A DNA stretch of 64,000 bases from Acidimicrobiales bacterium. Lineage in GTDB: Bacteria; Actinomycetota; Acidimicrobiia; Acidimicrobiales; SZUA-35. Location of the stretch: the NCBI GenBank assembly GCA_013003535.1, contig JABDIY010000028.1, positions 25,631-89,630 on the forward strand, given 5' to 3'. This document shows positions 27,506 to 63,906 of this stretch, one piece after another (positions within the stretch are counted from its first letter, which is position 1; each line of letters begins with the position of its first letter). The position numbers and the translations under genes are program-made. The notes beneath the pieces are model-generated. The model was not told the origin of the DNA. It saw only the letters and a list, made by a program, of their open reading frames with translations, and made no database searches.

Positions 27506-27575
27506 AGACGCTCCCTCGTATCTCTGTTTGTCATGGCCACCCGCAAACGTGAGTTGCACCACTAAATTGAAACCC

Positions 27576-36071: not shown

Positions 36072-36082
36072 GGCGAACGTGA

Positions 36083-37435: not shown

Positions 37436-37444
37436 TGAGGCCAG

Positions 37445-37948
37445 TTACCCCACACCGGTGTCGAGGTTGTAATCAACCCGGTTGGGGTTGTCCTCGACAT
37501 AGCTCTCATCATGTTTCACCAGGATCTGGCTGGACTCGAACACATCGCCATTCCAATGCCCCTCAACTACTACCGGTTCGCCGAGATCGAAGAGGTCCGA
37601 CGGTTCCGGTCCCACGTGTCGGACTTGGGCCGTGGCGTCGTTGTAGGCCACGGTGAAAACCAATGCCCCACCTTCGGACGTTCCGCTCTCTGCCACCACT
37701 GTTCCCTGCATACGGAAGGTCCGATCCCCCAGTTCGGCCTGCTGGGCGATGGCCTCATCTACGTTGTAGAAGAACACGCGGGCGTTGACGATTCCTTGGT
37801 AGAGCACGAAGGTCAAGGCCAGAGCAACCACCCCACCGATGACCTTGTTGCGGGTGGAGCCACGTTTCACCCGCTCCGCTGCTTCTGGCCCGCCATCCTG
37901 CCGGGGGCGAAGATTGAGGCCGGGGTCTGGCAGATCTTGGCTATTCAA
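37445..37948 (-). CDS. ccmE: Heme chaperone CcmE
   Basis: N-terminal anchor, OB-fold region and heme-binding HxxxY (LVKHDESYVE). TTG start. Confidence 0.85.
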   Translation of the reverse strand: MNSQDLPDPGLNLRPRQDGGPEAAERVKRGSTRNKVIGGVVALALTFVLYQGIVNARVFFYNVDEAIAQQAELGDRTFRMQGTVVAESGTSEGGALVFTVAYNDATAQVRHVGPEPSDLFDLGEPVVVEGHWNGDVFESSQILVKHDESYVEDNPNRVDYNLDTGVG

Positions 37949-38075
37949 GGAACGCCCGCTTCTCTTCTGGAATCTTTCGGGCGGCGGACCGCAGGCGACT
38001 CATCAGCGATGCGGTATAGACGCCCAATCCCGCGAAGACGATGACGTACCCAGGAATGACATACTGCCAGTGCAT
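37941..38075 (-). CDS. ccmD: Heme exporter protein CcmD (44 aa, not in the ORF track)
   Basis: My translation: MHWQYVIPGYVIVFAGLGVYTASLMSRLRSAARKIPEEKRAFLE*. One TM plus a basic tail. The ATG immediately follows the ccmC TGA (TGAATG), and the 3' end overlaps the ccmE start by 8 nt. Confidence 0.65.
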   Translation of the reverse strand: MHWQYVIPGYVIVFAGLGVYTASLMSRLRSAARKIPEEKRAFLE

Positions 38076-38834
38076 TCAGATCGCCTCCCCGGCGAGTGAG
38101 GAGCGGTGCTCACCGCGACGAGCGGCAATGGCATCGTCGAGGGACACGGCCGCAGCCTGATGTTCGTACCAGGCCAGCCGGAACCGGTGCATGAGAAGCC
38201 ACGCAAAAATCAGTGTGAACGTGAGAACACCCCACGCGAGGGTGAAGAACATCAGTCCGTCCATCTGGGTATCGATGCCGACGGTCGACCCCTGATGGAG
38301 ACCCCGCCACCATTCCACCGATTGCTTCACGATCAGGAGATTGGCGAAACTGATGATGCCCAGTATCGCCGCTCGGCGGGAACGTACCACCGGGTCGAGG
38401 TCCATTCGTCTGACCGCCAGATACCCGAGGTACAGCACCAGCGTGACGGTGGTGGACGTGATCCGGGGATCCCACTCCCAATACACGCCCCAGGTTGGGC
38501 GGCCCCAAAGGGCCCCGGTCACCAGCACGAAGGCGCAGAACAGCACCCCGATCTCCGCACCGGCATGGGCCATGAGGTCCCAGAAATCGGATTGTTTCCG
38601 CAGGTAGACGATGCTGCCGACAAGTGTGACCCCAAAGGCAAAGTACAGACCGACGACAGCTGACGGCACGTGGACATACATAAGCCGCACCGCATCGGCC
38701 TGGTCCACCTCCCGGGGCGACCAGATCAGACCCAACAGCAGGAGAAGCACCGTAGAAACCAGGGCGAGCGCCCCGAGGATCCGGGTGCCGCGGGAGCTGG
38801 AGGGCCCGGCCAGTTTGCGTGCGATTGAGCTCAC
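38076..38834 (-). CDS. ccmC: Heme exporter protein CcmC
   Basis: WWD motif GALWGRPTWGVYWEWDPRITS. GTG 38834 overlaps the ccmB stop (GTGA). The longer ORF-track start at 39134 lies inside ccmB. Confidence 0.85.
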   Translation of the reverse strand: MSSIARKLAGPSSSRGTRILGALALVSTVLLLLLGLIWSPREVDQADAVRLMYVHVPSAVVGLYFAFGVTLVGSIVYLRKQSDFWDLMAHAGAEIGVLFCAFVLVTGALWGRPTWGVYWEWDPRITSTTVTLVLYLGYLAVRRMDLDPVVRSRRAAILGIISFANLLIVKQSVEWWRGLHQGSTVGIDTQMDGLMFFTLAWGVLTFTLIFAWLLMHRFRLAWYEHQAAAVSLDDAIAARRGEHRSSLAGEAI

Positions 38835-39553
38835 ATGTCCTCCAGGAGGGTTTCGAACGAAAGTATGCCTGCGCCCACATAAAGTGCAGCGAAGGCGGCC
38901 AGAGCAGCTACCCACGGCCAGCCATCGGCCACCGCACCGAACAACGCAGCCTCGGTGGCCTGACTGGCCCCGAGAAGCACCGGGGCCAGCACCGGAATTA
39001 CCAGCAACGGAACCAGAGACTCCCGCTCCCGCTGACCAGCTGCCAGTGCCGAATACAGAGTACCCGCCGCAGCGATCGCCGTAATAGCCGCGCCGGCAGT
39101 CGTGACACCAAGCACAGCTCGGGCCACGGACCATTCGATCCGGACGCTGAAGAACAGGAAGGCTCCGGAGGTGACAACCGCACTGACGCCCAGTAACTGT
39201 ACGACCACCGCTCCTGCCTTACCGAGGAAGATCCCAGCCGGGTCAAGGCCCGCCATTCGCAGTCCATCGAGCGTGCCGTCGTTGGCCTCGACCCCAAAGC
39301 TCCGTCCGATGGCGAGGAGTGAGGCGAAGAGGACCGCGAGAAACAGCAAACCCGGCGTCACGCGGGAAAGGACTGACGGAGCCACAGTGGCTGTGGAGTC
39401 GAGTATTCGGAGGTCCGGTGATATCCCGAACCCAAAGAGGATCAGAATCATCACGGCGAATGGCACGACCTGCGCGGTGACCACACGCGACGACCGTTCG
39501 ATCAGGAGATCCTTGCCCAAAACCATTCGAGCATCGCGGAGGAGCTCAAACAT
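38831..39553 (-). CDS. ccmB: Heme exporter protein CcmB
   Basis: 240-aa six-helix membrane protein between ccmA and ccmC. 8-nt overlap with ccmA. Confidence 0.8.
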   Translation of the reverse strand: MFELLRDARMVLGKDLLIERSSRVVTAQVVPFAVMILILFGFGISPDLRILDSTATVAPSVLSRVTPGLLFLAVLFASLLAIGRSFGVEANDGTLDGLRMAGLDPAGIFLGKAGAVVVQLLGVSAVVTSGAFLFFSVRIEWSVARAVLGVTTAGAAITAIAAAGTLYSALAAGQRERESLVPLLVIPVLAPVLLGASQATEAALFGAVADGWPWVAALAAFAALYVGAGILSFETLLEDM

Positions 39554-40283
39554 CGGTGCCGCCCGGCCGACCGATGGGGCGGATCGGATGTTCGTGGACC
39601 GTTCCCCCGTGAACGATCACAGTGCGGGTCAGGATGTCGTCGATACGACCAACATCGTGGGTGGCCACCATGATGGTGGCTCCTGCGGCGGCGGCATCCA
39701 TGAGAAGTTGATCCAGAAGATTCCGACCGTCGTGATCCAGCCCGGCGTGGGGTTCATCGAGCAGCCACAGCCTGGGCCGGCGCGCCACGAGGATCGCCAA
39801 CGCCGTTCGCCGTCGCTGACCAGCAGACAGCCCTGCCACCTTCACCGTCGCCACCCTCCCCGCCACACCCAGATGGTCCATCGCTGCCAGGACATCGGGT
39901 TCGGCCGCTCTGTTCGCCCGGGCCCAGAACCGAACGTTCTGCTCCACCGTGAGGTCGTCGTAGAGCGAGGTGTCATGACCTAAGAGGCCAACTGCTTTTC
40001 GGGTGCTCCGGCGACCTGCTCGGGTCCCGAGATCGTGACCGAGCACCGAGCCGCTCCCGCGGCTGAGTGTGACCAGTCCGGCGCAAAGGCGTAGCACCGT
40101 GGTCTTGCCGGCGCCATTTGCCCCGCGCAGACCAACGATCTCGCCCGATCCCACGGTGAGGTCCAAACCTGCGAGGGCCGGGAAACCACCCATCAGACAC
40201 ACCACGCCCTGCAATTGGACAAGCTCTTTGTCCTGGAGGTCCCCCGCTGCGCTGGGCGCCGGATCTCGGGAGTCCAATGTCAC
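39546..40283 (-). CDS. ccmA: Heme ABC exporter ATP-binding protein CcmA
   Basis: Walker A GANGAGKTT, signature LSAGQRRR, Walker B LWLLDEP. GTG start. Confidence 0.85.
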   Translation of the reverse strand: MTLDSRDPAPSAAGDLQDKELVQLQGVVCLMGGFPALAGLDLTVGSGEIVGLRGANGAGKTTVLRLCAGLVTLSRGSGSVLGHDLGTRAGRRSTRKAVGLLGHDTSLYDDLTVEQNVRFWARANRAAEPDVLAAMDHLGVAGRVATVKVAGLSAGQRRRTALAILVARRPRLWLLDEPHAGLDHDGRNLLDQLLMDAAAAGATIMVATHDVGRIDDILTRTVIVHGGTVHEHPIRPIGRPGGTDV

Positions 40284-44385: not shown

Positions 44386-45369
44386 TTAACTGCAGTCATC
44401 CACGCCCACCCACCGGGCACCACTGACTGCAGAACGCTCGGAGCGGGTCGGGAGATGACGGGCCAGAACTGAGCTGGCGTGAGCCGGATGGCGAACGATG
44501 TCCCAATAGGTAAAACGCAGAATTGTCCACCCCGCAGCCATGAGATCGTTCTGGCGCCGGAGGTCACACTGAAATTGCTCCGCTGTGGAATGAGCCAACA
44601 TCGAGTCACACTCCACCACGATGCCGAAGTTCGGCCAGGCAAAATCTACGAAGTACAACCTTCCCTGGTACGAAATCGGGTGCTGAGCGATCGGCGGCGG
44701 AAACCCGGCCTCGGTGAATAATCGCTTAGCGACCTTTTCGTAGGAGTTCAGCGGGCGGCCAAAACGCTCCGGATCCCTGTCAGCCAGCACGCTCAGGACC
44801 CGCCGCACACCCCGCTTGCCGCGCCGTGCCAGCTGGGCGAGACGCAAGGCAAGATCATCGGCGGTGAACATTCGCTCCTTTTCAGCCCAGCTCACTTGCT
44901 GACCGATGACCTTGTCGTCCAGATAGGGACTGGCGTCGATCACCGAACGGAGTGGCGTCGTGACGCGAATTCGCCCGTTCCTCACGACGTCTCCTGGTCG
45001 GAGATCTCTGAGTTGATGACTTTCAACATGAGCAGATCGGCATCTCAGGCCGTTCGGACCATAGAGCTGAACTCGCCCCTTCGACCCACCCGGCATGTTC
45101 CACAACCGCAGCGCGGAGACGCCGCCGATCGCGTGATTCTCGGTCCCGATGAGGTTGGCAAGATGAACTGCATCGGAAAAGTCAAAGAGGCCGTTCGTTG
45201 TTCGGTAGATCCCGTGGTGATGTCGGTGAAGAAGGCCTTCGCTGTTCCAGCGGGACGCGGTTGACGCCGGCACGCCGAGCAGTTTGAGGTCGGCGCTGGT
45301 GACAAAGCCGTTCTGTCGATCAGCAAAGTGAAGTACGCGGGCATAGCGATTGAGATGAGGACGAGACAT
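44386..45369 (-). CDS. DUF559 (Vsr-like endonuclease fold) protein with AbiEi-like N-terminal wHTH domain
   Basis: C-terminal VDFAWPNFGIVVECDSMLAHSTAEQFQCDLRRQNDLMAAGWTILRFTYWDI is the DUF559 signature. N-terminal LHFADRQNGFVTSADLKLLGVPASTASRW. ATG 45369. Confidence 0.75.
   Translation of the reverse strand: MSRPHLNRYARVLHFADRQNGFVTSADLKLLGVPASTASRWNSEGLLHRHHHGIYRTTNGLFDFSDAVHLANLIGTENHAIGGVSALRLWNMPGGSKGRVQLYGPNGLRCRSAHVESHQLRDLRPGDVVRNGRIRVTTPLRSVIDASPYLDDKVIGQQVSWAEKERMFTADDLALRLAQLARRGKRGVRRVLSVLADRDPERFGRPLNSYEKVAKRLFTEAGFPPPIAQHPISYQGRLYFVDFAWPNFGIVVECDSMLAHSTAEQFQCDLRRQNDLMAAGWTILRFTYWDIVRHPAHASSVLARHLPTRSERSAVSGARWVGVDDCS
44388..44435. repeat. 55-nt repeat unit, copy 2 (first 48 nt)
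   Basis: Identical to copy 3 over 48 nt and differs from copy 1 at one position (C vs G). It encodes the last 15 codons and the stop of the DUF559 ORF on the minus strand. Confidence 0.9.
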
Positions 45370-45482
45370 TGATCCGCTCCGTTTCCAAGGTTGGTTCGGT
45401 GGAGCGACAACGGCTCGAGTGGTCACACGCCGGGTAGGAGCGGACCGGACGGCCAGGCTACCCATCGACCAACGCTCTCGCT

Positions 45483-50481: not shown

Positions 50482-51222
50482 TCATGCCAGGATTTGGTTG
50501 ATTCGCTCGGCCGAGGATCGGACCATCTTCTCGAAATCTTTGGCGCGAGAGCCGGGAAACCGAAATGTGGGACCATGAATGTTGATTCCGCCAACAACCT
50601 CGCCGGTGCGAGCGATGAGGGGCGACGATAACGAAGAGATTCCGATCTCCAGTTCATCGCAGGTCCACGCCAGCCCGGTCTCGCGAATCTTTTCGATGCG
50701 AGCCCGAAGGGCGGTTGGATCGGTCATGGAATTTGGCGTGCGCGATTCCAGTTCGCGGCCGAGATAGTTGTCGAGAGCGTCATCGGACCACGAGGCCAGC
50801 GCCACCAGGCCCGGCGCCACCAGATGCATCGGAAGCCGGGTGTCCACCCAGTCCCGCAGCTGAACTGCCACATCGGCGCGCTCCTCGGCGATGAAGTGCA
50901 CGGTGTACCCCGAAGTGACCGAGAGCCCTACGGCCTCACCGCTCTGGACCGCCAATGCCCGTAGCTCTTCTCGGGCGAGTGCGGTAAGACTTCGAGACGC
51001 GTCCACACCGGTTGCCATGGTGACGATTCCCGTGCCGATCCGGTACAGATTGGCATTGTCGAGTCGTTCTGCTGCGCCAACGTGTTCAAGCGTGGCCAGC
51101 AACCGTGATGCGGTGGAGATCGGTAGTTGCACCTGTCTGGCGATTTCACTGAGGCTGGCGGGCCCACCTCGGAGCGCCTCCAAAATCGTGAAGGCCCGAG
51201 TAACACTCTGCACTACGGCCAT
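50482..51222 (-). CDS. IclR family transcriptional regulator
   Basis: VQSVTRAFTILEALRGGPASLSEIARQVQLPISTASRLL is the IclR wHTH, followed by a C-terminal effector domain. It is divergent from the corrinoid operon. Confidence 0.85.
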   Translation of the reverse strand: MAVVQSVTRAFTILEALRGGPASLSEIARQVQLPISTASRLLATLEHVGAAERLDNANLYRIGTGIVTMATGVDASRSLTALAREELRALAVQSGEAVGLSVTSGYTVHFIAEERADVAVQLRDWVDTRLPMHLVAPGLVALASWSDDALDNYLGRELESRTPNSMTDPTALRARIEKIRETGLAWTCDELEIGISSLSSPLIARTGEVVGGINIHGPTFRFPGSRAKDFEKMVRSSAERINQILA

Positions 51223-51295
51223 TGTTCTTCCTCCGGGCGTCTTCGCGGACCGGGGCGACCGGCCGACTTCGTCTGCGACTTCCCATCATACGGGA

Positions 51296-51317
51296 AGTTT
51301 CCGTCTGTTGGGAAACT
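51296..51317. promoter_or_regulatory. Candidate operator: inverted repeat AGTTTCC-N8-GGAAACT in the IclR/corrinoid-operon divergent intergenic region
   Basis: Perfect 7-bp arms at 51296-51302 and 51311-51317. The repeat lies about 75 nt from the IclR start and about 90 nt from the corrinoid gene ATG. There is no experimental support. Confidence 0.3.
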
Positions 51318-51405
51318 CAGCTCCTGCTATGGCACACTGATGTAACGATGGTCACGCCACCGCTGGACCGTTCAATCGCGAAAAAGACTCCGAGGAGGTG
51401 TCAGC

Positions 51406-52110
51406 ATGGCCGCTGAAGAATTTGAAGAAATCGACCTGTCTGCGTTAAGTGACGAAGACTTGACGGCACAGATGCATGACGACCTGTACGACGGACTCAA
51501 AGATGAGATCACCGAGGGAACCAACATTCTGCTGTCACGGGGTTGGGGTCCCGACAAGGTCCTCAACGATGCTCTCGTCGAGGGAATGCGGATCGTGGGA
51601 ATCGACTTTCGCGACGGGATCCTGTTCGTTCCGGAAGTCTTGCTGGCCGCCAATGCGATGAAAGCCGGGATGCATATCCTTCGTCCACTGCTCGCCGAAA
51701 CGGGCGCTGAGTCGATCGGCACCGTGGTCATCGGGACCGTCAAGGGCGACATCCACGACATAGGCAAGAACCTCGTGGCGATGATGCTCGAGGGCGCTGG
51801 CTTCGAAGTGATCGACCTCGGAATCAATACCGACGTTGATGGCTACCTCGCCGCACTAGAGGAACACCAGCCGGACATACTTGGAATGTCTGCTCTGCTC
51901 ACAACCACAATGCCGTACATGAAGGTCGTCATCGACACGATGGTCGAAAAGGGCCTTCGGGATGACTACATCGTTCTTGTCGGTGGTGCCCCGCTCAATC
52001 AAGAGTTCGGCGATGCAATCGGAGCCGACGGCTACTGCCGGGATGCGGCGATCGCTGCCGAAATGGCCAAGAGTATGGTGCTCGAACGTCGTGCTGCCGC
52101 CAAAGCCTGA
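51406..52110 (+). CDS. Corrinoid (cobalamin-binding) methyl-carrier protein, MtgC/MtbC-like
   Basis: B12-binding DxHxxG motif (GTVKGDIHDIGKNLV) and an N-terminal helical cap domain. GGAGG lies about 8 nt before the ATG. Confidence 0.85.
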   Translation: MAAEEFEEIDLSALSDEDLTAQMHDDLYDGLKDEITEGTNILLSRGWGPDKVLNDALVEGMRIVGIDFRDGILFVPEVLLAANAMKAGMHILRPLLAETGAESIGTVVIGTVKGDIHDIGKNLVAMMLEGAGFEVIDLGINTDVDGYLAALEEHQPDILGMSALLTTTMPYMKVVIDTMVEKGLRDDYIVLVGGAPLNQEFGDAIGADGYCRDAAIAAEMAKSMVLERRAAAKA

Positions 52111-52732
52111 CAACGCGGAATCTGCGCTGGTGATCGCCTGTGGCGCTCTCGTTCGCGAGATCAGAGCCGTGTGGGACCAATTCCCCGACTCGCCCCTCGC
52201 CAACGTCAGCTACCTCCCGGCTCCGCTGCATAACCGTCCGGAACAGATCGTGCCCGCCATCCAAGAACAACTGCGAGCCAAAGAGGGCACGTACAGCTCG
52301 GTCTTGCTCGGCTATGGCGATTGCGGAACCGGCGGCCACCTGGACGCGTTCATCGACCGGTGGAACAGCAAAGACCCCTCCATCCCAATGCGACGCATGA
52401 GCGGGGATCATTGTTATGAGTTCCTCACCGGATCCAACGCTTTTGCCGAGATCCATGAGGCCGAACTTGGGACGTTCTTCCTCACCGATTTCATCGTTGT
52501 CAACTTCGACTCGCTGATATGGAGGGGTCTCGGCATGGACAAGCACCCCGAGCTTCGCGACATGTACTTCGGCAACTACACAAGGGCGCTCTACCTCGCC
52601 CAAGAACCAACGTCGGTTCGTATCGCAGCAGCGGAGGCTGCCGCCGCCAAACTGGGGCTGCGTTTCGAAACGCACACCACAGGATTCGAACCGTTCCGTG
52701 AACAGCTCGTCTCACTCGCCAGGGAGACATAA
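52091..52732 (+). CDS. DUF1638 domain protein
   Basis: ALVIACGALVREI..., LLGYGDCGTGG and DFIVVNFD motifs match my recollection of DUF1638, a family seen in corrinoid methyltransferase clusters. GTG 52091 or 52130; the ORF-track start at 51962 lies inside the corrinoid gene. Confidence 0.6.
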   Translation: MLPPKPDNAESALVIACGALVREIRAVWDQFPDSPLANVSYLPAPLHNRPEQIVPAIQEQLRAKEGTYSSVLLGYGDCGTGGHLDAFIDRWNSKDPSIPMRRMSGDHCYEFLTGSNAFAEIHEAELGTFFLTDFIVVNFDSLIWRGLGMDKHPELRDMYFGNYTRALYLAQEPTSVRIAAAEAAAAKLGLRFETHTTGFEPFREQLVSLARET

Positions 52733-52735
52733 CCC

Positions 52736-53092
52736 ATGCCCCGAAATCGTAACCCTCAGCTGATCGTCATCTACTGGCGAGACATTCCGTCTCAGGTCAA
52801 TGGAGCCAGCGGTTCTGAAAAACACCAGGTTCTTCTCAAACCACGATTCGAAAAAGCTATTGACCGCGCCGCGATGACCGCCGGCCTCACCCAAGCGTCG
52901 GACTATGTCAACGAATGGCGCCGAGAAACGCAACCGGCACACGGCGATATCGCCGCCGCCGCTCAGGCCCTCGCCGCCGAACTCGAAGCGGCCTTTCCGC
53001 TCACCGTGCTCGATGAATACGTCGCAACGGGCGGATTCGCTCCCCCAACCTCACATCAACCATCATCACGCTCAAACGGGGTCCAACCATGA
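52736..53092 (+). CDS. Small protein of the so-called virulence-factor family (PF13769-like)
   Basis: LIVIYWRDIPSQVNG...FEKAIDRAAMTAGL...YVNEWRR matches the remembered family pattern (IVYWRDIPAQV...AIDRAAM...EWRR). Confidence 0.5.
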   Translation: MPRNRNPQLIVIYWRDIPSQVNGASGSEKHQVLLKPRFEKAIDRAAMTAGLTQASDYVNEWRRETQPAHGDIAAAAQALAAELEAAFPLTVLDEYVATGGFAPPTSHQPSSRSNGVQP

Positions 53093-53985
53093 CCGAGACC
53101 ATTATTAGTTCCGCCACCAAGGAGGTCGTGCTGGGATTCAATCGACCCTTCGTGATGATCGGTGAACGGATCAACCCAACCGGACGCAAGCTTCTGGCAG
53201 CAGAGATGAAAGCCGGCGATTTCAGCCGAGTCGAGGCCGATACCATCGCGCAGATCGAGGCGGGAGCGCACATGCTCGATGTGAATGCCGGCATCCCCCT
53301 GGCCGATGAGCCCGCACTGCTGGCAAAAGCTGTGAAACTCGTGCAGAGCATTACTGATGTGCCACTCAGCATTGACTCCAGCATCATCGAAGCCCTCGAA
53401 GCCGGTTGTGCGGTCTATCAAGGAAAACCGCTGATCAACTCGGTAACAGGCGAGGACGAAAACCTCGAACGAGTGCTGCCATTGGTCGCAAAATACGGGG
53501 CCGCCGTCGTTGCAATTTCCAACGACGAAACAGGCATCTCCGAGGATCCCGATGTCCGCTTCGCAGTAGCCCAAAAGATTGTCAATCGGGCCGCCGATCA
53601 CGGGATCCCCGCCTGCGATGTTGTGGTGGATCCGTTGGTGATGCCGATCGGCGCCATGGGAACCGCGGGCCGACAGGTTTTCGCGCTGTTACGCCGCCTC
53701 AAAGATGAACTCGGTGTCAACACAACTTGCGGGGCTTCGAATGTGAGCTTTGGCCTCCCGCAGCGCCATGCCATCACGGGGACGTTCCTGGCGATGGCCA
53801 TTTCCAACGGGATGACCAGCGCCATCATGAGCCCGCTGCACGCCGAGGTGAAAAACGCCATCCTGGCCGCCGACGTTCTGGCCGGGAACGACGCCAACTG
53901 TGCTGCCTGGATCAAGGAGCACCGCGAACCGGTTCCAGAGGGCGAAGGCCGTGTCCGCCGCGGCAGTCGCCGTCGCCCCGCCTAG
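53089..53985 (+). CDS. Methyltetrahydrofolate:corrinoid methyltransferase (pterin-binding, MtgA/MeTr-like)
   Basis: IGERINPTGRKLLAAEMKAGDF, LDVNAG, INSVTGE and GASNVSFGLP are pterin-binding TIM-barrel motifs. ATGA overlap with the upstream stop. Confidence 0.85.
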   Translation: MTETIISSATKEVVLGFNRPFVMIGERINPTGRKLLAAEMKAGDFSRVEADTIAQIEAGAHMLDVNAGIPLADEPALLAKAVKLVQSITDVPLSIDSSIIEALEAGCAVYQGKPLINSVTGEDENLERVLPLVAKYGAAVVAISNDETGISEDPDVRFAVAQKIVNRAADHGIPACDVVVDPLVMPIGAMGTAGRQVFALLRRLKDELGVNTTCGASNVSFGLPQRHAITGTFLAMAISNGMTSAIMSPLHAEVKNAILAADVLAGNDANCAAWIKEHREPVPEGEGRVRRGSRRRPA

Positions 53986-54010
53986 GCAACCCTCGCGCTG
54001 ATCCCTGCCG

Positions 54011-56074
54011 ATGACCACCACCGCCAACAGCTCCGCCGGTGATGAAGCACCCCGGGTTCGCGCAGTGTTCACTCCGTCGGGACTCGAGACCTCCGTTGCT
54101 ATCAATACCTCGGTGTTGGATGCTGCCCGCGCATTGGGTGTGGATGTGGACTCGGTTTGCGGCGGGCGGGGAATTTGCGGCCGCTGCCAGGTGTCAGCGC
54201 CCCTTGGCACCTTCGACAAGTGGGCGCTCACGGCACGATCCGATGGCCTCACGCCACCAAACGAGACCGAGGCGAACTATCGAGGCAAACGAACCCTCAA
54301 AACAGGTCATCGCCTCGGCTGCCAGGCCCTCATCGTAAGCGACGTCATCATTGACGTTCCTCCCGAATCCCAGATCCACAAGCAGGTGGTTCGCAAGGCA
54401 TTGCGGATGGACGGTGTTGTCCTGGACCCCACGGTTCGGCTTCATTATCTTGAAATCCCGAAAACGCTGTTGGGCGACGACGCCACTGCCAGCCAGCTCA
54501 TCATCAACGCCCTAGCCGAGCAATGGGAGCGCCACCAGGTACGCGTGAGCCCGTCGATCTTGAGCGAACTTCACCCGGCGATGGCGACCGACGACCAGGC
54601 AGTCACCGTGGCGGTCTCTACCGCTTTAGCGGCAACAGGCGAGGTGGTAGCTATCTGGCGAGGCTTCGTCGATGCGGCTTGCGGCGTCGCAATCGATGTC
54701 GGCTCTACCACGGTGGCCGGGCACCTTCTGGACCTTGCCACCGGCGAGGTGCTGGCTTCGGCTGGTCGGATGAATCCACAGATCCGGTTCGGTGAAGACT
54801 TGATGAGCCGGGTGAGTTTCGTGATGATGAACCCCGGCGGCCGGGTGGAACTGACCAACGCCATTCGATCGGCTCTGGCCGAGCTCATAGCGGAGCTCTT
54901 GGAAGCGGCCAGCCGCCCTGCCAACACCATGCTCTCGGTGACCCTCGTTGGTAACCCCGTCATGCACCACCTTCTCTTGGGGATTGATCCCACCCCGTTA
55001 GGAGCGGCGCCCTTCGTCCTCGCCACCGCCGACCCACTTACGATCTCCGCCCGGTCGCTTGATCTCCCCTACCCCAATGCCACCGCCTACATCGGTCCGT
55101 GTATCGCTGGCCATGTTGGGGCCGACACCGCCGCCGCCATCTTGGCCGAGGGACCCCATCGCGGAGAAACTAATCAACTGCTGGTCGATGTGGGAACGAA
55201 TGCCGAGATCGTGCTGGGTTCCCGGGCCGGTTTATTCGCGGCGTCGTCCCCCACCGGCCCGGCGTTCGAAGGTGCTCAGTTGAGCTGTGGCGTGCGAGCT
55301 ACTACCGGAGCTATCGAACGGGTCCGGATCGATCCCATAACGCTCGAACCCAGATTTCGTGTGATCGGCCAGGAAGCGTGGAGCGACGAGGACGAGTTCG
55401 ATCATTCTCGACCGGTGGTAGGGGTCTGCGGATCCGGCATCATCGAAGTCATGGGTGAAATGTTCACGAGTGGCGTGATGGACTCTGAGGGCGTCATTCG
55501 ACCTCCGAAGCCCGAACATGCCGATCGGGTGGTGGCCGATGATCGAACCTTCAGCTTTGTCCTTCATCGCTCGTCCGCTGGTGCAGAGATGCGGATCACG
55601 CAGAACGACGTGCGGGCCATCCAGCTGGCCAAGGCGGCGCTTCGCGCCGGGATCGATCTGTTGATGGAGCACGCCGGTGTCACCGAGGTCAACGACATTC
55701 GTCTGGCCGGCGCATTCGGTGCCCACATCGATCCGGTGTATGCGGTAGGAATCGGTCTCGTCCCCAACGGGTCACGGGGGGCCGATGCGGTGCAATCCAC
55801 CGGCAACTCGGCGGGCAATGGTGCGGTTCGAATGTTGCTGTCAGGTGCGGACAGGACCGAGATCGCCACCGTGGTCGCTACACAGGTCACCAAGATTGAA
55901 ACGGCCACCGAACCCCGCTTTCAGGACTTGTTCGTAGATGCGATGGCTTTCCCGCATCGGCGTGAGTCTCCGCTCGCCACCGCCACCGGAGCACGACGTC
56001 GGCGGCGCCGTACCGGCGAAGGCTCCGTTCCGTCCGATCCATCACCACCAAACACAGAAACAGAAAACGTATGA
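54011..56074 (+). CDS. Reductive activator of corrinoid proteins (RACo-type): N-terminal 2Fe-2S ferredoxin + ASKHA ATPase domain
   Basis: Plant-type ferredoxin Cys pattern (CGGRGICGRCQV ... C), then an ASKHA-like region (AIDVGSTTVAGHL, LVDVGTNAEIVLG). Confidence 0.8.
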   Translation: MTTTANSSAGDEAPRVRAVFTPSGLETSVAINTSVLDAARALGVDVDSVCGGRGICGRCQVSAPLGTFDKWALTARSDGLTPPNETEANYRGKRTLKTGHRLGCQALIVSDVIIDVPPESQIHKQVVRKALRMDGVVLDPTVRLHYLEIPKTLLGDDATASQLIINALAEQWERHQVRVSPSILSELHPAMATDDQAVTVAVSTALAATGEVVAIWRGFVDAACGVAIDVGSTTVAGHLLDLATGEVLASAGRMNPQIRFGEDLMSRVSFVMMNPGGRVELTNAIRSALAELIAELLEAASRPANTMLSVTLVGNPVMHHLLLGIDPTPLGAAPFVLATADPLTISARSLDLPYPNATAYIGPCIAGHVGADTAAAILAEGPHRGETNQLLVDVGTNAEIVLGSRAGLFAASSPTGPAFEGAQLSCGVRATTGAIERVRIDPITLEPRFRVIGQEAWSDEDEFDHSRPVVGVCGSGIIEVMGEMFTSGVMDSEGVIRPPKPEHADRVVADDRTFSFVLHRSSAGAEMRITQNDVRAIQLAKAALRAGIDLLMEHAGVTEVNDIRLAGAFGAHIDPVYAVGIGLVPNGSRGADAVQSTGNSAGNGAVRMLLSGADRTEIATVVATQVTKIETATEPRFQDLFVDAMAFPHRRESPLATATGARRRRRRTGEGSVPSDPSPPNTETENV

Positions 56075-57645
56075 CCGACTCAACCGCTACCAACGCTTCG
56101 GATTCCACTGCCGCTCCGGCCCGAGGGGGGCGCAGCGGCGGCGGCCGCGCCGCCCGCCAGGCGAAACGTTCCGCCGCCTCGGTGGTGGCTCCCTACCTCA
56201 CCCGCTCGCTGCCGCCGGTGGAGGTCCTGGACGAGGCGGGCTTGGCCCAAATCGAGGAGAACGCCGAGACCATCCTCAGCGAGATCGGTATCGCATTCCA
56301 GGAATTCCCAGAGGCCCTCGAGCTTTGGCGTCAGGCCGGGGCGCAGGTAGATGGTGAACTGGTGAAATTCCCTCGCGGTCTGTGCCGTGAGATCGTCCAG
56401 CAGAATGCTCCCGCCAGCTTCATCCAGGAAGCCCGCAACCCGGCCCGCAACGTGCAGATCGGCGGGAACTCCACTGTCTTCGCCCCCAACTATGGCTCCC
56501 CGTTCGTAACCGACCTCGACCGGGGTCGCCGCTACGCCACCATTGCCGACTTCCAGAATGCCGTGAAGCTGGTCTACTCCATTCCTCATCTTCATCACAG
56601 TGGCGGCACCGTTTGCGAGCCCACCGACGTCCCAGTGAACAAGCGACATCTGGACATGGTGTACTCGCATCTCAAGTATTCAGATAAGCCGTTGATGGGC
56701 TCGGTCACCGCTGCCGAACGAGCTGCAGACTCGGTGGAGCTCTGCCGAATCGCATTCGGAGGAGACCTTGGAGACCGAACGGTGCTGACCTCACTGATCA
56801 ACGCGTCATCACCACTCCGCTGGGATGCCACCATGCTCGGTGCGGCCACGGTGTATGCAAAGGCCAACCAGGCCACGGTCATCTCGCCCTTTATCCTCGC
56901 CGGTGCCATGAGCCCGGTCACGGTGGCCGGCATGGCCGCTCAGGCCTTGGCCGAAGCGCTCAGCGGAATGGCCTACTGCCAGCTCGTCCGCCCCGGCGCC
57001 CCGGTGATCTTCGGAACGTTCGCATCATCGATGTCCATGGCCACAGGAGCGCCAACCTTTGGCACTCCCGAAGCCGGCTTGGCGATCTTCGTGATGGCAG
57101 CATTGGCTCGACGAGTCGGCGTACCGTTCCGATCGGGTGGACAGTTCACGGCCTCCAAACATCCAGACGCTCAGGCCGCCTATGAATCAGCCCACACCCT
57201 CCTGCCCACGGTTCAGGCCGGAGTGAACTTCGTACTTCATGCCGCAGGCTGGCTGGAAGGTGGTTTGGCTCTGAGCTTCGAGAAGCTGATCATGGACGGC
57301 GATCAATTGGGAGCGATGACCGTGTACGGCAAAGGGGTGGACTTGACCGAGAATGGCCAGGCGATGTCCGCCTTCCGGTCCAACGAACATGGCCAACACT
57401 TCCTCGGGAACGAGCACACCCTGGGCAACTTCGAGACGGCGTTCTGGCGAAGCGATCTCAACGACAACAACAGCTTCGAACAATGGAGCGATGAGGGCGC
57501 AAAAACTCACGATCAGCGGGCCAACGAGCGTTGGAAACAAATGCTGTCCGATTACACCGCCCCTGACCTGGATGACGCAATCGACGCCCGGATGCTCAGC
57601 TTCATCGAGACGCGCAAGTCAGCGATGCGTGACGAAATCGGATAG
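56071..57645 (+). CDS. MttB-superfamily methyltransferase, non-pyrrolysine type (quaternary-amine:corrinoid methyltransferase candidate)
   Basis: 524-aa uninterrupted ORF with no in-frame TAG. Overall MttB-like sequence (e.g. NASSPLRWD, GAMSPVTVAG, TFGTPE). ATGA overlap with the RACo gene stop. Confidence 0.8.
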   Translation: MTDSTATNASDSTAAPARGGRSGGGRAARQAKRSAASVVAPYLTRSLPPVEVLDEAGLAQIEENAETILSEIGIAFQEFPEALELWRQAGAQVDGELVKFPRGLCREIVQQNAPASFIQEARNPARNVQIGGNSTVFAPNYGSPFVTDLDRGRRYATIADFQNAVKLVYSIPHLHHSGGTVCEPTDVPVNKRHLDMVYSHLKYSDKPLMGSVTAAERAADSVELCRIAFGGDLGDRTVLTSLINASSPLRWDATMLGAATVYAKANQATVISPFILAGAMSPVTVAGMAAQALAEALSGMAYCQLVRPGAPVIFGTFASSMSMATGAPTFGTPEAGLAIFVMAALARRVGVPFRSGGQFTASKHPDAQAAYESAHTLLPTVQAGVNFVLHAAGWLEGGLALSFEKLIMDGDQLGAMTVYGKGVDLTENGQAMSAFRSNEHGQHFLGNEHTLGNFETAFWRSDLNDNNSFEQWSDEGAKTHDQRANERWKQMLSDYTAPDLDDAIDARMLSFIETRKSAMRDEIG

Positions 57646-57746: not shown

Positions 57747-59573
57747 TTGGATGTCAGCTCCCAACGGTCGGGCCATGGCGAGTATGGCACCGTGATCTCA
57801 GCGGTGGCGAGAGCCCAGATTGGTGAACGGCGAGGATGGCTGCGGTTTTCAAACCCACGCTCGTCGATCGTTGCAGACCGACTGGATGAGGTCCGTCCTG
57901 CGCTGGAAAGAATCGAGGCAGAGGTGAACGCCGGCCGCTGGGCGGTGGGCTTGGTCTCCTATGATGCCGGCCCCGCCTTCGACATGGCTATTCGTAGCCA
58001 CCGCGACGCCACCGTTCCGCTCGTCCATTTCGGAATCTTTGATCCGAGCAACGTTGCAGAGTCAGATCCGGTCGGCGGCAGCTTCTGGCTGGGGCCTCGA
58101 CGGCCGCTCATCAGCCGAAACAACTTCGAAGAGGGCGTCCGTTCCGTCCATCGCTTCATCGAGGCCGGCGACACCTACCAAGTCAATCTCACCCTTCGAC
58201 TGGGCGCACGCTTCGCTGGCGATCCAGAGGGTCTGTTCGCGGCTCTCGCCACCGCTCAGCAAGGCGAGCACGAAGCTTTGCTGGATCTGGGCGACACCGC
58301 GGTTTGTTCCGCATCACCAGAACTGTTCTTCACCCACCACGCGAACGGCAGCCTCGTGTCGAAACCGATGAAAGGAACCCGCCCTGCAGGAACCCCCCAC
58401 GAAGAACTTACCGGCAGCCTCAAAGACCAAGCCGAAAACACCATGATCGTGGACATGATGCGCAACGACTTCGGCCGAATCGCCGAGATCGGTTCGGTGG
58501 AGGTACCGAAATTACACGAAGTGGAGGAGTACCCCACCGTTATCCAGATGACGTCCACAGTCACGGCCCGTTCAAAAGTTGGGCTCGCCGATCTGTTCGC
58601 GGCCACGTTCCCTCCGGCGTCGATCACAGGTGCCCCAAAGATTCGCACCACGGAGATCATCACTGAGTTGGAGACCCAACCTCGCGGGGTTTACACCGGC
58701 TCGATCGGAGTGCTTGCACCGTCCCTGCCCGGCGCGGGGATCGAACGGCGCAGCGAGTGGAACGTGGCGATTCGCACGGTGTGGATTGACAAAGCTGCCG
58801 GTCGAGCCACCTATGGAGTTGGTGGCGGCATCGTCTGGGATTCCGATCCGGCCGAGGAGTGGAACGAAACCCGAGTGAAGAGCAGGGTTCTCCTTCATGC
58901 CGATCAGAAGTTCGAGCTGATCGAATCGCTTCGCTTCAGCCCCGACGAGCCATCCCTTGCCGACGATCATGGATACTGGTTACTCGATCTCCATCTCGAC
59001 AGATTGCTGCGATCCGCCGAGTTCTTTCAATTTCGGTTTGACCCTGAATACATCCGAGCCGAGCTCGTGGACATGCATCCACCAAGCGCGGCCAAGGTTC
59101 GCCTTCTACTGAATCCAAGCGGCGGTGTCAGTATCACACATGCGCCGCTTGGCGCCACGGGTCATTTCGGCCTCGAGCCCCCGACTGCCGGTATCCGTAA
59201 ACCGGTAGTAATCGACAGCGTGCCGGTCATGGCCAATGATCCGTTCCTCGCGCACAAGACCACCCACCGAACCATCTATGACCGGGCGGGAGCCCGTAAC
59301 GCCGGGGCCGCAGACGTCATCCTGGTGAACAGCACAGGCTGCGTAACCGAGTCGCTGAGCGCGAACCTGGTGATTCGGGATGACTCGGGGCGGTTGCTGA
59401 CCCCGCCGTCCAGTTCCGGACTACTTCCGGGGGTCTTCCGACGACATCTACTCGTGAATACAGCGCTTCTGGAGGAGCCGATCACAACCGACGAACTGCG
59501 TCGAGCCGCCGACCAGGCCAATGCATGGCTGATCAACAGTGTTCGCGGCTGGGTGCCCCTGACTCTGACGTGA
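57747..59573 (+). CDS. pabB: Aminodeoxychorismate synthase component I fused to an aminodeoxychorismate lyase-like class IV aminotransferase domain (PabB-PabC)
   Basis: Chorismate-binding region (SPELFF, PMKGT, ENTMIVDMMRND, ITGAPK, VYTGSIG, GGGIVWDSDP), followed by a C-terminal ~220 aa class IV fold-like segment. TTG 57747, or GTG 57792. Confidence 0.75.
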   Translation: MDVSSQRSGHGEYGTVISAVARAQIGERRGWLRFSNPRSSIVADRLDEVRPALERIEAEVNAGRWAVGLVSYDAGPAFDMAIRSHRDATVPLVHFGIFDPSNVAESDPVGGSFWLGPRRPLISRNNFEEGVRSVHRFIEAGDTYQVNLTLRLGARFAGDPEGLFAALATAQQGEHEALLDLGDTAVCSASPELFFTHHANGSLVSKPMKGTRPAGTPHEELTGSLKDQAENTMIVDMMRNDFGRIAEIGSVEVPKLHEVEEYPTVIQMTSTVTARSKVGLADLFAATFPPASITGAPKIRTTEIITELETQPRGVYTGSIGVLAPSLPGAGIERRSEWNVAIRTVWIDKAAGRATYGVGGGIVWDSDPAEEWNETRVKSRVLLHADQKFELIESLRFSPDEPSLADDHGYWLLDLHLDRLLRSAEFFQFRFDPEYIRAELVDMHPPSAAKVRLLLNPSGGVSITHAPLGATGHFGLEPPTAGIRKPVVIDSVPVMANDPFLAHKTTHRTIYDRAGARNAGAADVILVNSTGCVTESLSANLVIRDDSGRLLTPPSSSGLLPGVFRRHLLVNTALLEEPITTDELRRAADQANAWLINSVRGWVPLTLT

Positions 59574-61283: not shown

Positions 61284-62153
61284 CTATTTCCGGTTGATGG
61301 TGGGCTGGACGTAGGTCCAGCCGAACCGGCCTTTTATGCACAGGTGACCATGAGTGACAGAATGATCAGAAGGTGAGGTCACCTTCACGATCGTGTTGTC
61401 TTGCACATGCATTTCCAGGTTGCAGCCAACGCCGCAATAGGAACAAATGGTCTGGGTAATGGTCTGCTCCTCGGGCTTCCATTGCTCCGCCTGCCGAAGG
61501 TCGAATTCGGTCTTGAACTGAATAGCACCGGTGGGACAAACACCGACACAATTGCCGCAGTAGACGCAAGCCGAATCGGGCAGTGTGACGTCATACTCGG
61601 TGCTGATCCGGGCCCCGAAACCTCTTCCGCTCACCGCGATCGCAAAGGTGAGCTGAGCGTCATCGCCACATGCCTCCACACACTTATAGCAGAGCACGCA
61701 TTTGTCGTAGTCGCGAATGTAGAGATCATCCTGGATCTTTACGGGCTCGTTGATTCGCTCAGCATCGGGGCCGTAGCGGGAAGGATCGGCACCGTACTCC
61801 TCCATCCAGCTATGGAGCTGGGTGGCCTGGCTCATGTCTACACCCGAACCGAGGAATTCCAGCACCATTTTGCGGCTGTGCCTGACCCGCTCTGAGTTGG
61901 TCTTGATCTCCATACCCTCTTCGGCCTTGCGGGAACAGGACGGGATCAGCGTGCGGGAACCTTCGTGTTCCACCACGCATACCCGGCAAGCGTTCACCGG
62001 GGTGAGGTTTTCGGCGTAACAAAGGGTTGGGGTGTCTACGCCGGCGGCGCTGCACGCATCCAGAACGGTCTGGCCTGCGGCAACCGTTACTGGCCTGCCA
62101 TCGATCGTGAGGGAGACCAGCGTCTCGGTGGAACGGGGTTCGAGGACGGTCAT
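61284..62153 (-). CDS. Fe-S protein equal to the N-terminal cluster-binding part of NAD-dependent formate dehydrogenase alpha / NuoG (2Fe-2S, 4Fe-4S domains, Mo-pterin-type Fe4S4 domain), lacking the catalytic domain
   Basis: TIDGRPVTVAAGQTVLDACSAAGVDTPTLCY...CRVCVVE; CVLCYKCVEAC; CVYCGNCVGVCPTGA; ICSYCGVGCNLEMH...GHLCIKGRFGW. It ends at TAG about 15 aa later. ATG 62153 lies 1 nt after the upstream TGA. Confidence 0.75.
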   Translation of the reverse strand: MTVLEPRSTETLVSLTIDGRPVTVAAGQTVLDACSAAGVDTPTLCYAENLTPVNACRVCVVEHEGSRTLIPSCSRKAEEGMEIKTNSERVRHSRKMVLEFLGSGVDMSQATQLHSWMEEYGADPSRYGPDAERINEPVKIQDDLYIRDYDKCVLCYKCVEACGDDAQLTFAIAVSGRGFGARISTEYDVTLPDSACVYCGNCVGVCPTGAIQFKTEFDLRQAEQWKPEEQTITQTICSYCGVGCNLEMHVQDNTIVKVTSPSDHSVTHGHLCIKGRFGWTYVQPTINRK

Positions 62154-62154
62154 G

Positions 62155-63906
62155 TCAGGCTCCGATGAGTCCGAGATCGATTGCGGAAAGGACAGCGGTT
62201 GCGGCGGTGTGGCCAAGTCCGCAGATCGAGGCATCTTTCATGGCGAGGTCGATGTCGTGAAGGATTTCGCGCTCGCCGTTCATAGACCGACCCGCCGATT
62301 TGATGACGAGCTCGTGCTGGCGGACCACGCCGATCCGGCAGGGCACGCACTGACCACAGCTCTCGTTGCGGAAGAACTCGGCAATCCGGGCGACCACAGC
62401 CGGGAAGTTCGTGGTGTCGTTGAAGAGTTTGACCACACCCGAACCTAGCGACGCACCCCGGGCACGAGAGTCTTCGAACGTGAGTGGCAGGTCTAACATG
62501 TCGACACCAACGAAGCTCCCGGCGGCCCCTCCCAACAAGACCGTGCGCAGATTGCCTACGGCACCTCCCGCCAACTCGATGATCTCGCCGAGCGTCACGC
62601 CGTGAGGCGCCTCGTAGAGTCCGGGTACCTGCACATGGCCGGATAGACAGAACAGTCGGGTGCCGGTTGAGCCAGAGGTCCCAATCTGGGAGTACGCCGC
62701 ACCGCCGTGTTCGAGAATCTGGAGGGCGTTGATCAGTGTCTCGGGGTTGTTGATAACGGTTGGTTGCTTGAACAGGCCGTGAGTGGTGGGAAACGGCGGC
62801 TTCTGTCGTGGTTCACCTCGAAATCCCTCCAGCGATTCGAACAGTGCGGTCTCCTCGCCACAGATGTATGCACCTGCGCCGCGCCGAATCTCCAGCTCGA
62901 ACCCGAGGGACGAACCGGCGATGCGTTCGCCGAGGAAACCGGCGGCGCGCGCCGAATCGATGGCGTTCTGAAGCCTGCGGGTGGCCAGTGGATACTCGCC
63001 CCGGATATAGATGAAACCTTTTCGGGCCCCGGTGACAAAACCAGCGATTGTGGCCGCCTCAACAATGGCGAACGGGTCCAGCTCCATGATGTGGCGGTCT
63101 TTGAATGTGCCCGGTTCGGACTCGTCGGCGTTGACCACGACCCACTTTTGGTCGCCACCGGCGCCTAGCACTCCGCGCCACTTGACCGCCGTTGGGAATG
63201 CTGCCCCACCTCTGCCCTTGAGGGCAGCGGTCTCGAGCTCCGCCAGCACTCCTTCGGCACCCAGCCGAAACGCCTCGGCGAGAGCTTTGAAGCCTCCATA
63301 GGCCACGTAGTCATCGAGGCTCTCCGGATTCGTTTCGCCCATCCGTCTCAAAAGTCGTAGTTGCGGCTGGCCTTGTTGGGGGATGATCCTCCCCTCGACG
63401 GCCACGGCGTCGGCCTCCACGAAGTCCGGGCGACCCTGATTCCCCTGTGTGAAGGTGGCGGGAGCTCGCTCACACTGACCCAAACACGGGCTGCGATGAA
63501 CGGTTGAGCCCTGCGCCTGGAGGTTCACGATAACGCCATCGGCACCGGCAATCTGACAGGCTGCGTCTACGCACACGTGAACGACGTCATTGATGTGACC
63601 CGGATCCTCCATTCGAAACATCTCGTAGAAACTGGCGACGCCGAAACCCTCGGCCGGGGGAACCCCCAGGCGCTCAGCGATGTAGTTCACCCCACCGTGA
63701 CTTATCCAGCCCGACACGTTGTGCAACGCATGCAGAGCAGGCAAAAGCCCGTGGCGCCGTTCGTTGGCTCGATGGATTCCACCCCGCACGAGGCGCTCCC
63801 CCTCATTCACAACCACAGCATCGAGACCACACGCGTCGATGGCGGCATCGATGGCGGCCATCTCCACCTGGGTAGCGCGGTCGGTCGTGAGGTGCAGGTC
63901 TGTCAT
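62155..63906 (-). CDS. Fused NuoE-like (2Fe-2S) / NuoF-like (FMN, NADH, 4Fe-4S) diaphorase subunit
   Basis: NuoE-like Cys pattern (HVCVDAACQ...CLGQCERAP), NuoF motifs GRGGAAFPTAVKW, NADESEPGTFKDR and ESCGQCVPCR. Confidence 0.85.
   Translation of the reverse strand: MTDLHLTTDRATQVEMAAIDAAIDACGLDAVVVNEGERLVRGGIHRANERRHGLLPALHALHNVSGWISHGGVNYIAERLGVPPAEGFGVASFYEMFRMEDPGHINDVVHVCVDAACQIAGADGVIVNLQAQGSTVHRSPCLGQCERAPATFTQGNQGRPDFVEADAVAVEGRIIPQQGQPQLRLLRRMGETNPESLDDYVAYGGFKALAEAFRLGAEGVLAELETAALKGRGGAAFPTAVKWRGVLGAGGDQKWVVVNADESEPGTFKDRHIMELDPFAIVEAATIAGFVTGARKGFIYIRGEYPLATRRLQNAIDSARAAGFLGERIAGSSLGFELEIRRGAGAYICGEETALFESLEGFRGEPRQKPPFPTTHGLFKQPTVINNPETLINALQILEHGGAAYSQIGTSGSTGTRLFCLSGHVQVPGLYEAPHGVTLGEIIELAGGAVGNLRTVLLGGAAGSFVGVDMLDLPLTFEDSRARGASLGSGVVKLFNDTTNFPAVVARIAEFFRNESCGQCVPCRIGVVRQHELVIKSAGRSMNGEREILHDIDLAMKDASICGLGHTAATAVLSAIDLGLIGA

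Follow-up and report, generated by a model that had tools for sequence, protein, structure and literature searches.

Cobalamin-dependent demethylation of glycine betaine by aerobic bacteria was published in 2025. In aerobic Ruegeria pomeroyi, growth on glycine betaine requires the cobalamin-binding protein MtgC and the pterin-binding protein MtgD and was abolished by knockout of mtgC or mtgD, and MtgB1 and MtgB2 (PF06253), a RamA-like protein and a DUF1638 protein were induced (Mausz et al. 2025, PMC12478193). The same study reported that MtgC and MtgD are shared with a split methionine synthase, in which they work together with MtgE, that mtgBCDE and both reactivation modules, namely a ferredoxin/DUF4445 (RACo-type) activase and DUF1638, are co-located in Sinorhizobium meliloti, that MetH is absent from about 70% of MtgBCD genomes, that a genome may carry as many as seven MttB paralogs whose presumed substrates are other methylated compounds, and that Actinomycetota contribute 5% of ocean mtgC reads (PMC12478193). 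In Phaeobacter inhibens, deletion of mtgB1 confirmed its role in glycine betaine demethylation, and growth on glycine betaine was abolished in an mtgB1/gbcAB double knockout (Hammer et al. 2025, bioRxiv 10.64898/2025.12.19.695462). Here, we describe a six-gene operon found in a 64-kb stretch of DNA from an Acidimicrobiales bacterium (GenBank assembly GCA_013003535.1, contig JABDIY010000028.1, positions 25,631 to 89,630), which is referred to below, at its full length, as the window. We consider the operon likely to be the Acidimicrobiia version of cobalamin-dependent, MtgBCD-type methyl transfer, with glycine betaine as the most likely substrate.

The six genes lie on the plus strand and span 51406-57645, and an IclR-family gene is located divergently upstream of them. 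The features of the locus are as follows.

50482-51222, minus strand: IclR-family regulator (246 aa; Pfam HTH_IclR and IclR_C)
51280-51314, no strand assigned: imperfect palindrome in the IclR-mtgC intergenic region, candidate operator
51406-52110, plus strand: MtgC-type corrinoid (cobalamin) carrier (234 aa; Pfam B12-binding_2 and B12-binding, PF02607 and PF02310)
52091-52732, plus strand: DUF1638 accessory protein (213 aa; PF07796, E = 1.6e-25)
52736-53092, plus strand: small accessory protein of the PF13769 family, named "Virulence_fact" (118 aa; E = 1e-16)
53089-53985, plus strand: MtgD/MtgA-like methylcobalamin:tetrahydrofolate methyltransferase, MeTr (298 aa; Pterin_bind, PF00809, E = 4e-27)
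54011-56074, plus strand: RACo/RamA-type ATP-dependent reductive activase (687 aa; Pfam RACo_linker, Raco_middle and RACo_C_ter)
56071-57645, plus strand: non-pyrrolysine methyltransferase of the MttB superfamily (524 aa; PF06253, 722 bits)
57145-57244, plus strand: Rfam PYLIS_3 match within the mttB coding sequence (39.3 bits, gathering score 38)

Direct reading of the junctions showed that the GTG start of the DUF1638 gene at 52091 precedes the stop codon of the corrinoid-protein gene (52108-52110), giving a 20-nt overlap, and that ATGA overlaps join the PF13769 gene to the MeTr gene (53089-53092) and the activase gene to the mttB gene (56071-56074). The initial annotation, made from the sequence alone, had placed all seven genes, the overlaps and the divergent IclR gene at these same positions. 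Its domain assignments were reproduced with Pfam and NCBIfam, and the mttB gene, which it had described as free of amber codons, is a single open frame of 524 codons. The operon is thus intact and well conserved, and the arrangement is not due to chance, because identical gene order was seen in dozens of independent genomes.

The closest described counterpart is the mtg cluster of S. meliloti, which we located by a tblastn search of a plasmid collection, in a chromosome-sized record. In this cluster, an MttB-family gene is divergent from genes encoding a cobalamin-binding protein, DUF1638, PF13769, MTHFR_C, MTHFR, a methyl-tetrahydrofolate:cobalamin methyltransferase and an ASKHA protein; some unrelated genes are scattered among them. 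The bmt gene (= MtgE, SMc04325) is located 6 kb from the cluster and a glycine betaine/proline ABC transporter is encoded nearby. The MttB protein of the cluster is 100% identical to PDB entry 4YYC. Identities between the window and S. meliloti proteins were 79% for MtgC, 62% for MeTr, 60% for MttB, 47% for the RACo-type activase, 44% for PF13769 and 38% for DUF1638. Because all six proteins are orthologous to those of the S. meliloti cluster, we regard the operon as the actinobacterial counterpart of that cluster. The S. meliloti record itself (CP090106.1, our locus L084) is a 3.72-Mb replicon labelled "plasmid pSymB" that holds the chromosomal mtg/bmt region, and is probably a mislabelled chromosome.

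The aerobic MtgBCD(E) systems of Ruegeria, Phaeobacter and Sinorhizobium consist of the same protein families as the window operon, PF13769 being shared with the S. meliloti cluster, and they likewise operate in an aerobic background. As the initial annotation had noted, the window carries aerobic-type genes: those of cytochrome c maturation (Ccm) system I at 34756-40283, the alpha and beta subunits of an electron transfer flavoprotein (ETF) at 15156-17064 and a luciferase-like monooxygenase at 27528-28667. The described aerobic hosts are Proteobacteria, whereas the present host belongs to the Actinomycetota (Acidimicrobiia), and WhiB, PdtaS and sortase genes provide actinobacterial markers in the window. 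The Ruegeria and Phaeobacter genes are scattered, whereas those of the window form a single tight, overlapping operon in which the mttB gene is the last. Unlike these systems, the window operon is accompanied by an IclR regulator and has no linked genes for MTHFR, MtgE/Bmt, a transporter or dimethylglycine catabolism. The reading of the operon as an oxygen-independent, B12- and tetrahydrofolate-dependent route of demethylation, centered on a non-pyrrolysine MttB homolog and encoded alongside aerobic-type genes, was supported. The restriction of characterized systems of this kind to strict anaerobes no longer holds, given MtgBCD in aerobic R. pomeroyi (PMC12478193) and in P. inhibens (bioRxiv 10.64898/2025.12.19.695462), and the exceptional character attributed to the operon is largely removed by the S. 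meliloti mtg cluster, which comes close to being an identical operon already described. The actinobacterial host, the compact single-operon form, the membership of PF13769 in the cassette and a subclade-specific Phe at the pyrrolysine (Pyl) position are new.

The best PDB match of the MttB protein was 4YYC (E = 3e-190, 59.5% identity), followed by MtgB of Desulfitobacterium hafniense (DhMtgB, DSY3156; 2QNE/9YCE, E = 1e-118, 43% identity), while the match to Pyl-containing MttB of Methanosarcina barkeri (7XCL) was only E = 3e-29, with 26% identity. In a neighbor-joining tree limited to DhMtgB, Pyl-MttB, 4YYC and the orthologs and paralogs of the fetched loci, the window protein was placed in an Acidimicrobiia subclade of the 4YYC clade, DhMtgB was the sister of that clade, and the other paralogs and Pyl-MttB fell outside. 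The D. hafniense MtgABC system follows the same three-component logic and includes a RamA-type activase, but is anaerobic, whereas the window organism has aerobic-type genes. Furthermore, DhMtgA is reported to have no sequence identity to known structures (PMC7154762), whereas the window methyltransferase is a standard Pterin_bind protein. M. barkeri Pyl-MttB belongs to the same superfamily, shares the TIM-barrel fold (PF06253) and likewise methylates its cognate corrinoid protein, but carries Pyl (UAG) where the window protein has Phe.

The glycine betaine site of DhMtgB has been defined by mutagenesis and a ligand-bound structure, with cation-pi contacts from Y97 and F356 and carboxylate binding by R312 and H348 (Picking et al. 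2026, PMC13080624). We mapped these residues with a HMMER alignment (chain index = native + 16) and a MAFFT alignment of 72 sequences. Tyr97, Arg312 and His348 are kept in the window protein as Y141, R354 and H390, and the latter two do not vary among 61 orthologs. Conservation of this Arg-His pair indicates that the substrate bears a carboxylate. At seven compared sites, all 61 orthologs (at least 61% identity) and 4YYC share the signature Y-R-[F/L/M]-H-W-G-G; the window protein reads Y-R-F-H-W-G-G, compared with F-Y-X-Y-M-L-G in Pyl-MttB. The Tyr was lost in four of five paralogs at 37-55% identity and kept in one, L055_2347 (48%). The residue at the Pyl-equivalent position, Phe359, was specific to the Acidimicrobiia subclade, whereas Leu is found there in the aerobic MtgBCD(E) system and Leu or Met in most other orthologs. 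In addition, residues 1-42 of the window protein (56071-56200, plus strand) form an Arg/Gly/Ala-rich N-terminal extension of ~40 residues, which is probably disordered; a similar extension is present in 4YYC, but it is absent from DhMtgB and from many Acidimicrobiia orthologs.

The remaining catalytic components carry the motifs expected of their families. The B12-binding signature of the corrinoid protein is complete (DIHDIG at residues 115-120, SAL at 162 and GG at 193), and the protein matched PDB 1Y80 with E = 4e-59, although it scored below the NCBIfam MtgC cut-offs (207 bits vs 370). MeTr passed the cut-off of NF005719 (352 bits vs 259). The activase has an N-terminal [2Fe-2S] domain, with Cys50/56/59/104 as the cluster motif, followed by the RACo linker, middle and C-terminal ASKHA ATPase domains. 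Its match to RACo of Carboxydothermus hydrogenoformans (PDB 3ZYY) was full length (residues 17-650, E = 8e-74), and it shares its architecture with this protein and with methanogen RamA; scores remained below the equivalog cut-offs of AcsV (326 vs 800) and RamA (92 vs 500). RACo serves CoFeSP of the Wood-Ljungdahl pathway, whereas the window activase is predicted to serve an MtgC-type carrier. We rejected a Wood-Ljungdahl methyl branch (AcsE/CoFeSP/RACo) for this locus: carbon monoxide dehydrogenase/acetyl-CoA synthase (CODH/ACS) genes were not present, the AcsV and CODH_ACS_meth models scored far under their cut-offs, and an mttB gene is part of the operon.

As a separate observation, the corrinoid carrier is unusually conserved across phyla, with 72-89% identity between Acidimicrobiia, Chloroflexia and Proteobacteria in the fetched loci, whereas the remaining cassette proteins are 38-62% identical to those of S. 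meliloti and MeTr reaches up to ~85% among the fetched loci. This suggests either strong constraint by many protein partners or lateral transfer of the cassette.

From these families we infer the following scheme. Gene content, motifs, orthology to the S. meliloti mtg cluster, conservation and purifying selection were observed, and the substrate, the direction of methyl flux, the regulation and the reductant are predictions. The MttB-family TIM-barrel enzyme would bind a carboxylated quaternary amine, most likely glycine betaine, and present one N-methyl group of this amine to the cobalamin that the MtgC-like carrier binds base-off/His-on in the Co(I) state, yielding methyl-Co(III) and dimethylglycine. 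The pterin-binding methyltransferase would then pass the methyl group to tetrahydrofolate and regenerate Co(I), a step that may be reversible, as proposed for MtgD, and the methyl-tetrahydrofolate would be available for C1 oxidation or assimilation. Adventitious oxidation of Co(I) to Co(II) is expected to be frequent in an oxygen-exposed cell, and the RACo/RamA-type protein would re-reduce Co(II) through its [2Fe-2S] cluster in a reaction coupled to ATP by the ASKHA ATPase. DUF1638 and PF13769 would act as accessory factors of the cassette that look obligate, and control of expression probably lies with the divergent IclR protein, acting at a conserved palindrome.

The distribution of the cassette was examined by tblastn searches with the six window proteins against 80 loci around MttB orthologs in species-representative genomes, and neighborhood counts cover 87 fetched loci, i.e., these 80 and seven that were fetched separately. 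The nearest MttB homologs (77-95% identity) were found in metagenome-assembled genomes of Acidimicrobiales or Acidimicrobiia, including sponge-associated Candidatus Poriferisodalis. Altogether, 43 of the fetched loci carried the cassette, with hosts in the Acidimicrobiia, Chloroflexia, Gaiellales and Proteobacteria. The order MtgC, DUF1638, PF13769, MeTr, RACo, MttB was kept in Acidimicrobiia, Chloroflexia, Gaiellales and further groups. The cassette of Gamma- and Alphaproteobacteria either adjoins the mttB gene or runs divergently from it. In a 94% identical relative (L081, a 2.47-Mb contig), gene order was shared from a HisN-like gene through the operon and further downstream through a PabB-PabC fusion gene, an amidase gene and a formate-dehydrogenase-like cluster. 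Comparison with L081 gave ratios of nonsynonymous to synonymous substitution rates (dN/dS) of 0.02-0.16 for every gene at dS values of 0.6-0.9, indicating purifying selection and no ongoing decay of the operon; the decay in related strains that the initial annotation had named as a possible objection was not seen in this comparison.

Profile hidden Markov models detected DUF1638 in 41 and PF13769 in 37 of the 43 cassettes, and the activase and DUF1638 occurred together in 41. The PF13769 protein is therefore a near-universal member of the cassette and is newly recognized as such here, the family being absent from the main text of both Mausz et al. 2025 (PMC12478193) and Price et al. 2018 (PMC5764234). 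In addition, all of three distant PF13769 homologs were placed between DUF1638 and MTHFR or MeTr genes, each within such a cassette. PF13769 genes outside the window have these coordinates:

L084 (S. meliloti record), 10108-10410: PF13769 protein
L085-L087, 7001-7423: PF13769 proteins

In DUF1638, C78, H107 and C108 are invariant and C17 is nearly so; that these residues hint at a metal site is speculative. Sequence searches against the PDB returned chance-level matches only for DUF1638 (E >= 0.015) and for PF13769 (E >= 0.98). AlphaFold2 models built from homolog alignments reached pLDDT values of 92.3 (DUF1638) and 83.5 (PF13769) and showed a weak two-lobed alpha/beta likeness to periplasmic-binding-protein or aspartate transcarbamoylase folds, and Foldseek searches of the PDB with the models gave no significant match (best E = 0.011 with a TM-score of 0.35 for DUF1638; best E = 0.33 for PF13769). 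In P. inhibens, the RamA-like and DUF1638 genes are needed for B12-dependent methionine synthesis, and the DUF1638 mutant is an auxotroph rescued by methionine, although no mechanism was proposed for DUF1638 (Price et al. 2018, PMC5764234). The view that the roles of both DUF proteins are unknown thus holds at the level of mechanism, but overlooks this fitness phenotype.

The genes near the orthologs point to a particular catabolic context. Among the 87 loci, MTHFR was encoded nearby in 30, a dimethylglycine/sarcosine dehydrogenase (DAO-FAO_M-GCV_T) in 19, a major facilitator superfamily (MFS) transporter in 14, SoxA and a BetA-like glucose-methanol-choline (GMC) oxidoreductase in nine each, FolD in six, MtgE in five and ETF in several. 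This neighborhood therefore suggests glycine betaine as the substrate, followed by oxidation of dimethylglycine and sarcosine and by tetrahydrofolate-linked C1 oxidation. Taking the relatives and the active site together, we conclude that the operon probably acts on glycine betaine. The initial annotation had regarded the substrate as unknown, which was too pessimistic, since glycine betaine is the well-supported default.

Several observations weigh against this assignment, and some of them favor the action of the same machinery on another methylated osmolyte, such as proline betaine, carnitine, gamma-butyrobetaine, choline, phosphocholine or a sulfonium compound. The fourth residue of the DhMtgB site, F356, is not conserved: Gly398 occupies this position in the window protein, in 4YYC and in every ortholog, so that the cation-pi pair is incomplete. 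A conserved Trp394 sits four residues ahead of it and might substitute for it. In the active-site comparison that the initial annotation had proposed, three of the four DhMtgB residues were thus kept and the Pyl-MttB site proved different, but the F356 position was not kept. No homolog of the dimethylglycine dehydrogenase, sarcosine oxidase, MTHFR, FolD, BetA, MtgE or MFS transporter seen near the orthologs was found in the 64-kb window, and because linked catabolic genes are lacking there, the substrate assignment rests on relatives. Specificity cannot be deduced from the 60% identity to S. meliloti MtgB, since MtyB and MtcB share 53% identity and yet prefer different substrates (PMC8604678). 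In our comparison, S. meliloti 4YYC served as a proxy for the validated R. pomeroyi MtgB1/2 (SPO2108 and SPO2134; Q5LRL7, Q5LRJ3) and P. inhibens MtgB1 (PGA1_RS07270), and support for the aerobic MtgB clade as a whole is genetic and proteomic rather than from in vitro biochemistry. Phe359, specific to the Acidimicrobiia subclade, and the multiple MttB paralogs per genome noted above (PMC12478193) would also fit a different osmolyte. Nevertheless, Y141, R354 and H390 are shared with the glycine betaine site, the window protein shares its clade with S. meliloti MtgB, which adjoins bmt and the glycine betaine/proline ABC transporter, and the cassette holds a single mttB gene. Moreover, a dimethylglycine/sarcosine dehydrogenase is encoded within 10 kb (<=10 kb) in four Acidimicrobiia loci (L002, L011, L015 and L024), and a DAO/GCV_T dehydrogenase is carried by L083. 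We therefore regard another osmolyte as rather unlikely. A narrower form of this idea is that the Acidimicrobiia subclade alone has diverged from glycine betaine, for example toward a methylated osmolyte of sponges or algae, and combines this with a DUF1638/PF13769 module that keeps corrinoid methyltransferases active under oxygen. Such divergence is suggested by the Phe at the Pyl position, by the missing second aromatic residue of anaerobic MtgB and by the absence of linked dimethylglycine and sarcosine genes, and we judge it to be somewhat less probable still.

Two further readings depart more widely from demethylation of glycine betaine. MtgC, the pterin methyltransferase, the RACo-like protein and DUF1638 could primarily be the central part of a split cobalamin-dependent methionine synthase that cooperates with a homocysteine-binding MtgE encoded elsewhere, the role of MttB being secondary. 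The methionine auxotrophy of RamA-like and DUF1638 mutants and the frequent lack of MetH in MtgBCD genomes (PMC12478193) agree with this, as do the five loci in which the MtgE gene adjoins the cassette and seven Acidimicrobiia loci with a MetY-like gene near it. However, the window and most actinobacterial loci lack a PF02574 (MtgE/Bmt) homolog, the ATGA overlap couples translation of the mttB gene to that of the activase gene, and the mttB gene is kept in the operon in every actinobacterial and Chloroflexia locus. An anabolic role in place of demethylation is accordingly quite improbable, although the two roles are compatible and not mutually exclusive. Relatives of the MttB protein are annotated as "trimethylamine methyltransferase family protein", and the PYLIS_3 match lies inside the gene, which might suggest a trimethylamine:corrinoid methyltransferase (MttB) acting on trimethylamine. 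Yet the gene has no in-frame UAG, and the PYLIS_3 match begins exactly at TTC, the codon of Phe359, which is homologous to Pyl334 (UAG) of M. barkeri MttB. Because the UAG of the model aligns to this TTC, the match reflects coding homology and not a functional pyrrolysine insertion element. In addition to its low identity to M. barkeri MttB, the protein scored 252 bits against TIGR02369 (cut-off, 525), DhMtgB, a much closer relative, does not use trimethylamine, and the conserved Arg and His point to a substrate bearing a carboxylate. Action on trimethylamine is thus scarcely credible.

Regulation of the operon is probably exerted by the divergent IclR protein, as judged from gene arrangement. 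A repeat search of the IclR-mtgC intergenic region detected the palindrome at 51280-51314, with 17-nt arms that are 82% complementary (TTCCCATCATACGGGAA / TTTCCGTCTGTTGGGAA). This block was conserved in L081 and partly in L014. The divergent IclR gene together with the conserved palindrome suggests that the latter is a candidate operator. A divergent IclR gene also adjoins the cassette in L014, L026-L038, L050, L051 and L081, and the dN/dS of the window IclR gene against L081 was 0.03. The window yielded neither a cobalamin riboswitch nor any other regulatory RNA, PYLIS_3 in the coding region being the sole Rfam match, and promoter and terminator consensus scans gave counts that were not above those of shuffled sequence.

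If the glycine betaine assignment holds, aerobic cobalamin-dependent demethylation of N-osmolytes would extend to the Acidimicrobiia and to neighboring Gram-positive and Chloroflexota lineages as a self-contained six-gene operon. This supports the idea that marine, sponge-associated and soil-dwelling aerobic heterotrophs widely share the pathway and the requirement for vitamin B12 that comes with it. Annotations as trimethylamine methyltransferase and Rfam PYLIS_3 matches on such genes are misleading; the PYLIS_3 model seems to capture conserved coding sequence and may lead automated pipelines astray when they annotate non-Pyl MttB genes. For heterologous reconstitution, the compact operon offers a handy unit, and PF13769 is a concrete target for learning how Co(I) chemistry survives oxygen.

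Several minor features of the window were also observed. Directly downstream of the operon (57747-59573, plus strand) is a gene for a fused PabB (aminodeoxychorismate synthase) and PabC-like class IV aminotransferase for p-aminobenzoate/folate. The same arrangement recurs in L081 and L014, and approximately so in L006, and may represent a functional link to folate supply. A few kilobases downstream of the operon, an NAD-linked formate-dehydrogenase-like cluster (61284-63906, minus strand) runs past the window end. It encodes a 583-aa NuoE-NuoF fusion and a separate 316-aa FeS/Molybdop_Fe4S4 protein; relatives have separate molybdopterin subunits, and the catalytic subunit appears split into several open reading frames (ORFs). 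The cluster was also found in L081 (15230-19818) and L083 (13804-18614), and thus occurs in the window lineage and in Candidatus Poriferisodalis; it fits oxidation of the transferred C1 unit to CO2. Within the Ccm region, CcmF is spread over two successive ORFs that differ in reading frame, 35394-36071 and 36083-37435 (both minus strand); one matched Cytochrom_C_asm and positions 1-125 of CcmF_C, and the other matched positions 170-320 of CcmF_C. Either a frameshift (assembly error or pseudogene) or a truly split gene could account for this. Finally, an ORF between housekeeping genes (44386-45465, minus strand) combines an AbiEi antitoxin-like helix-turn-helix with a REase_MTES_1575-like C-terminal domain, and may be a defense or toxin-antitoxin remnant.

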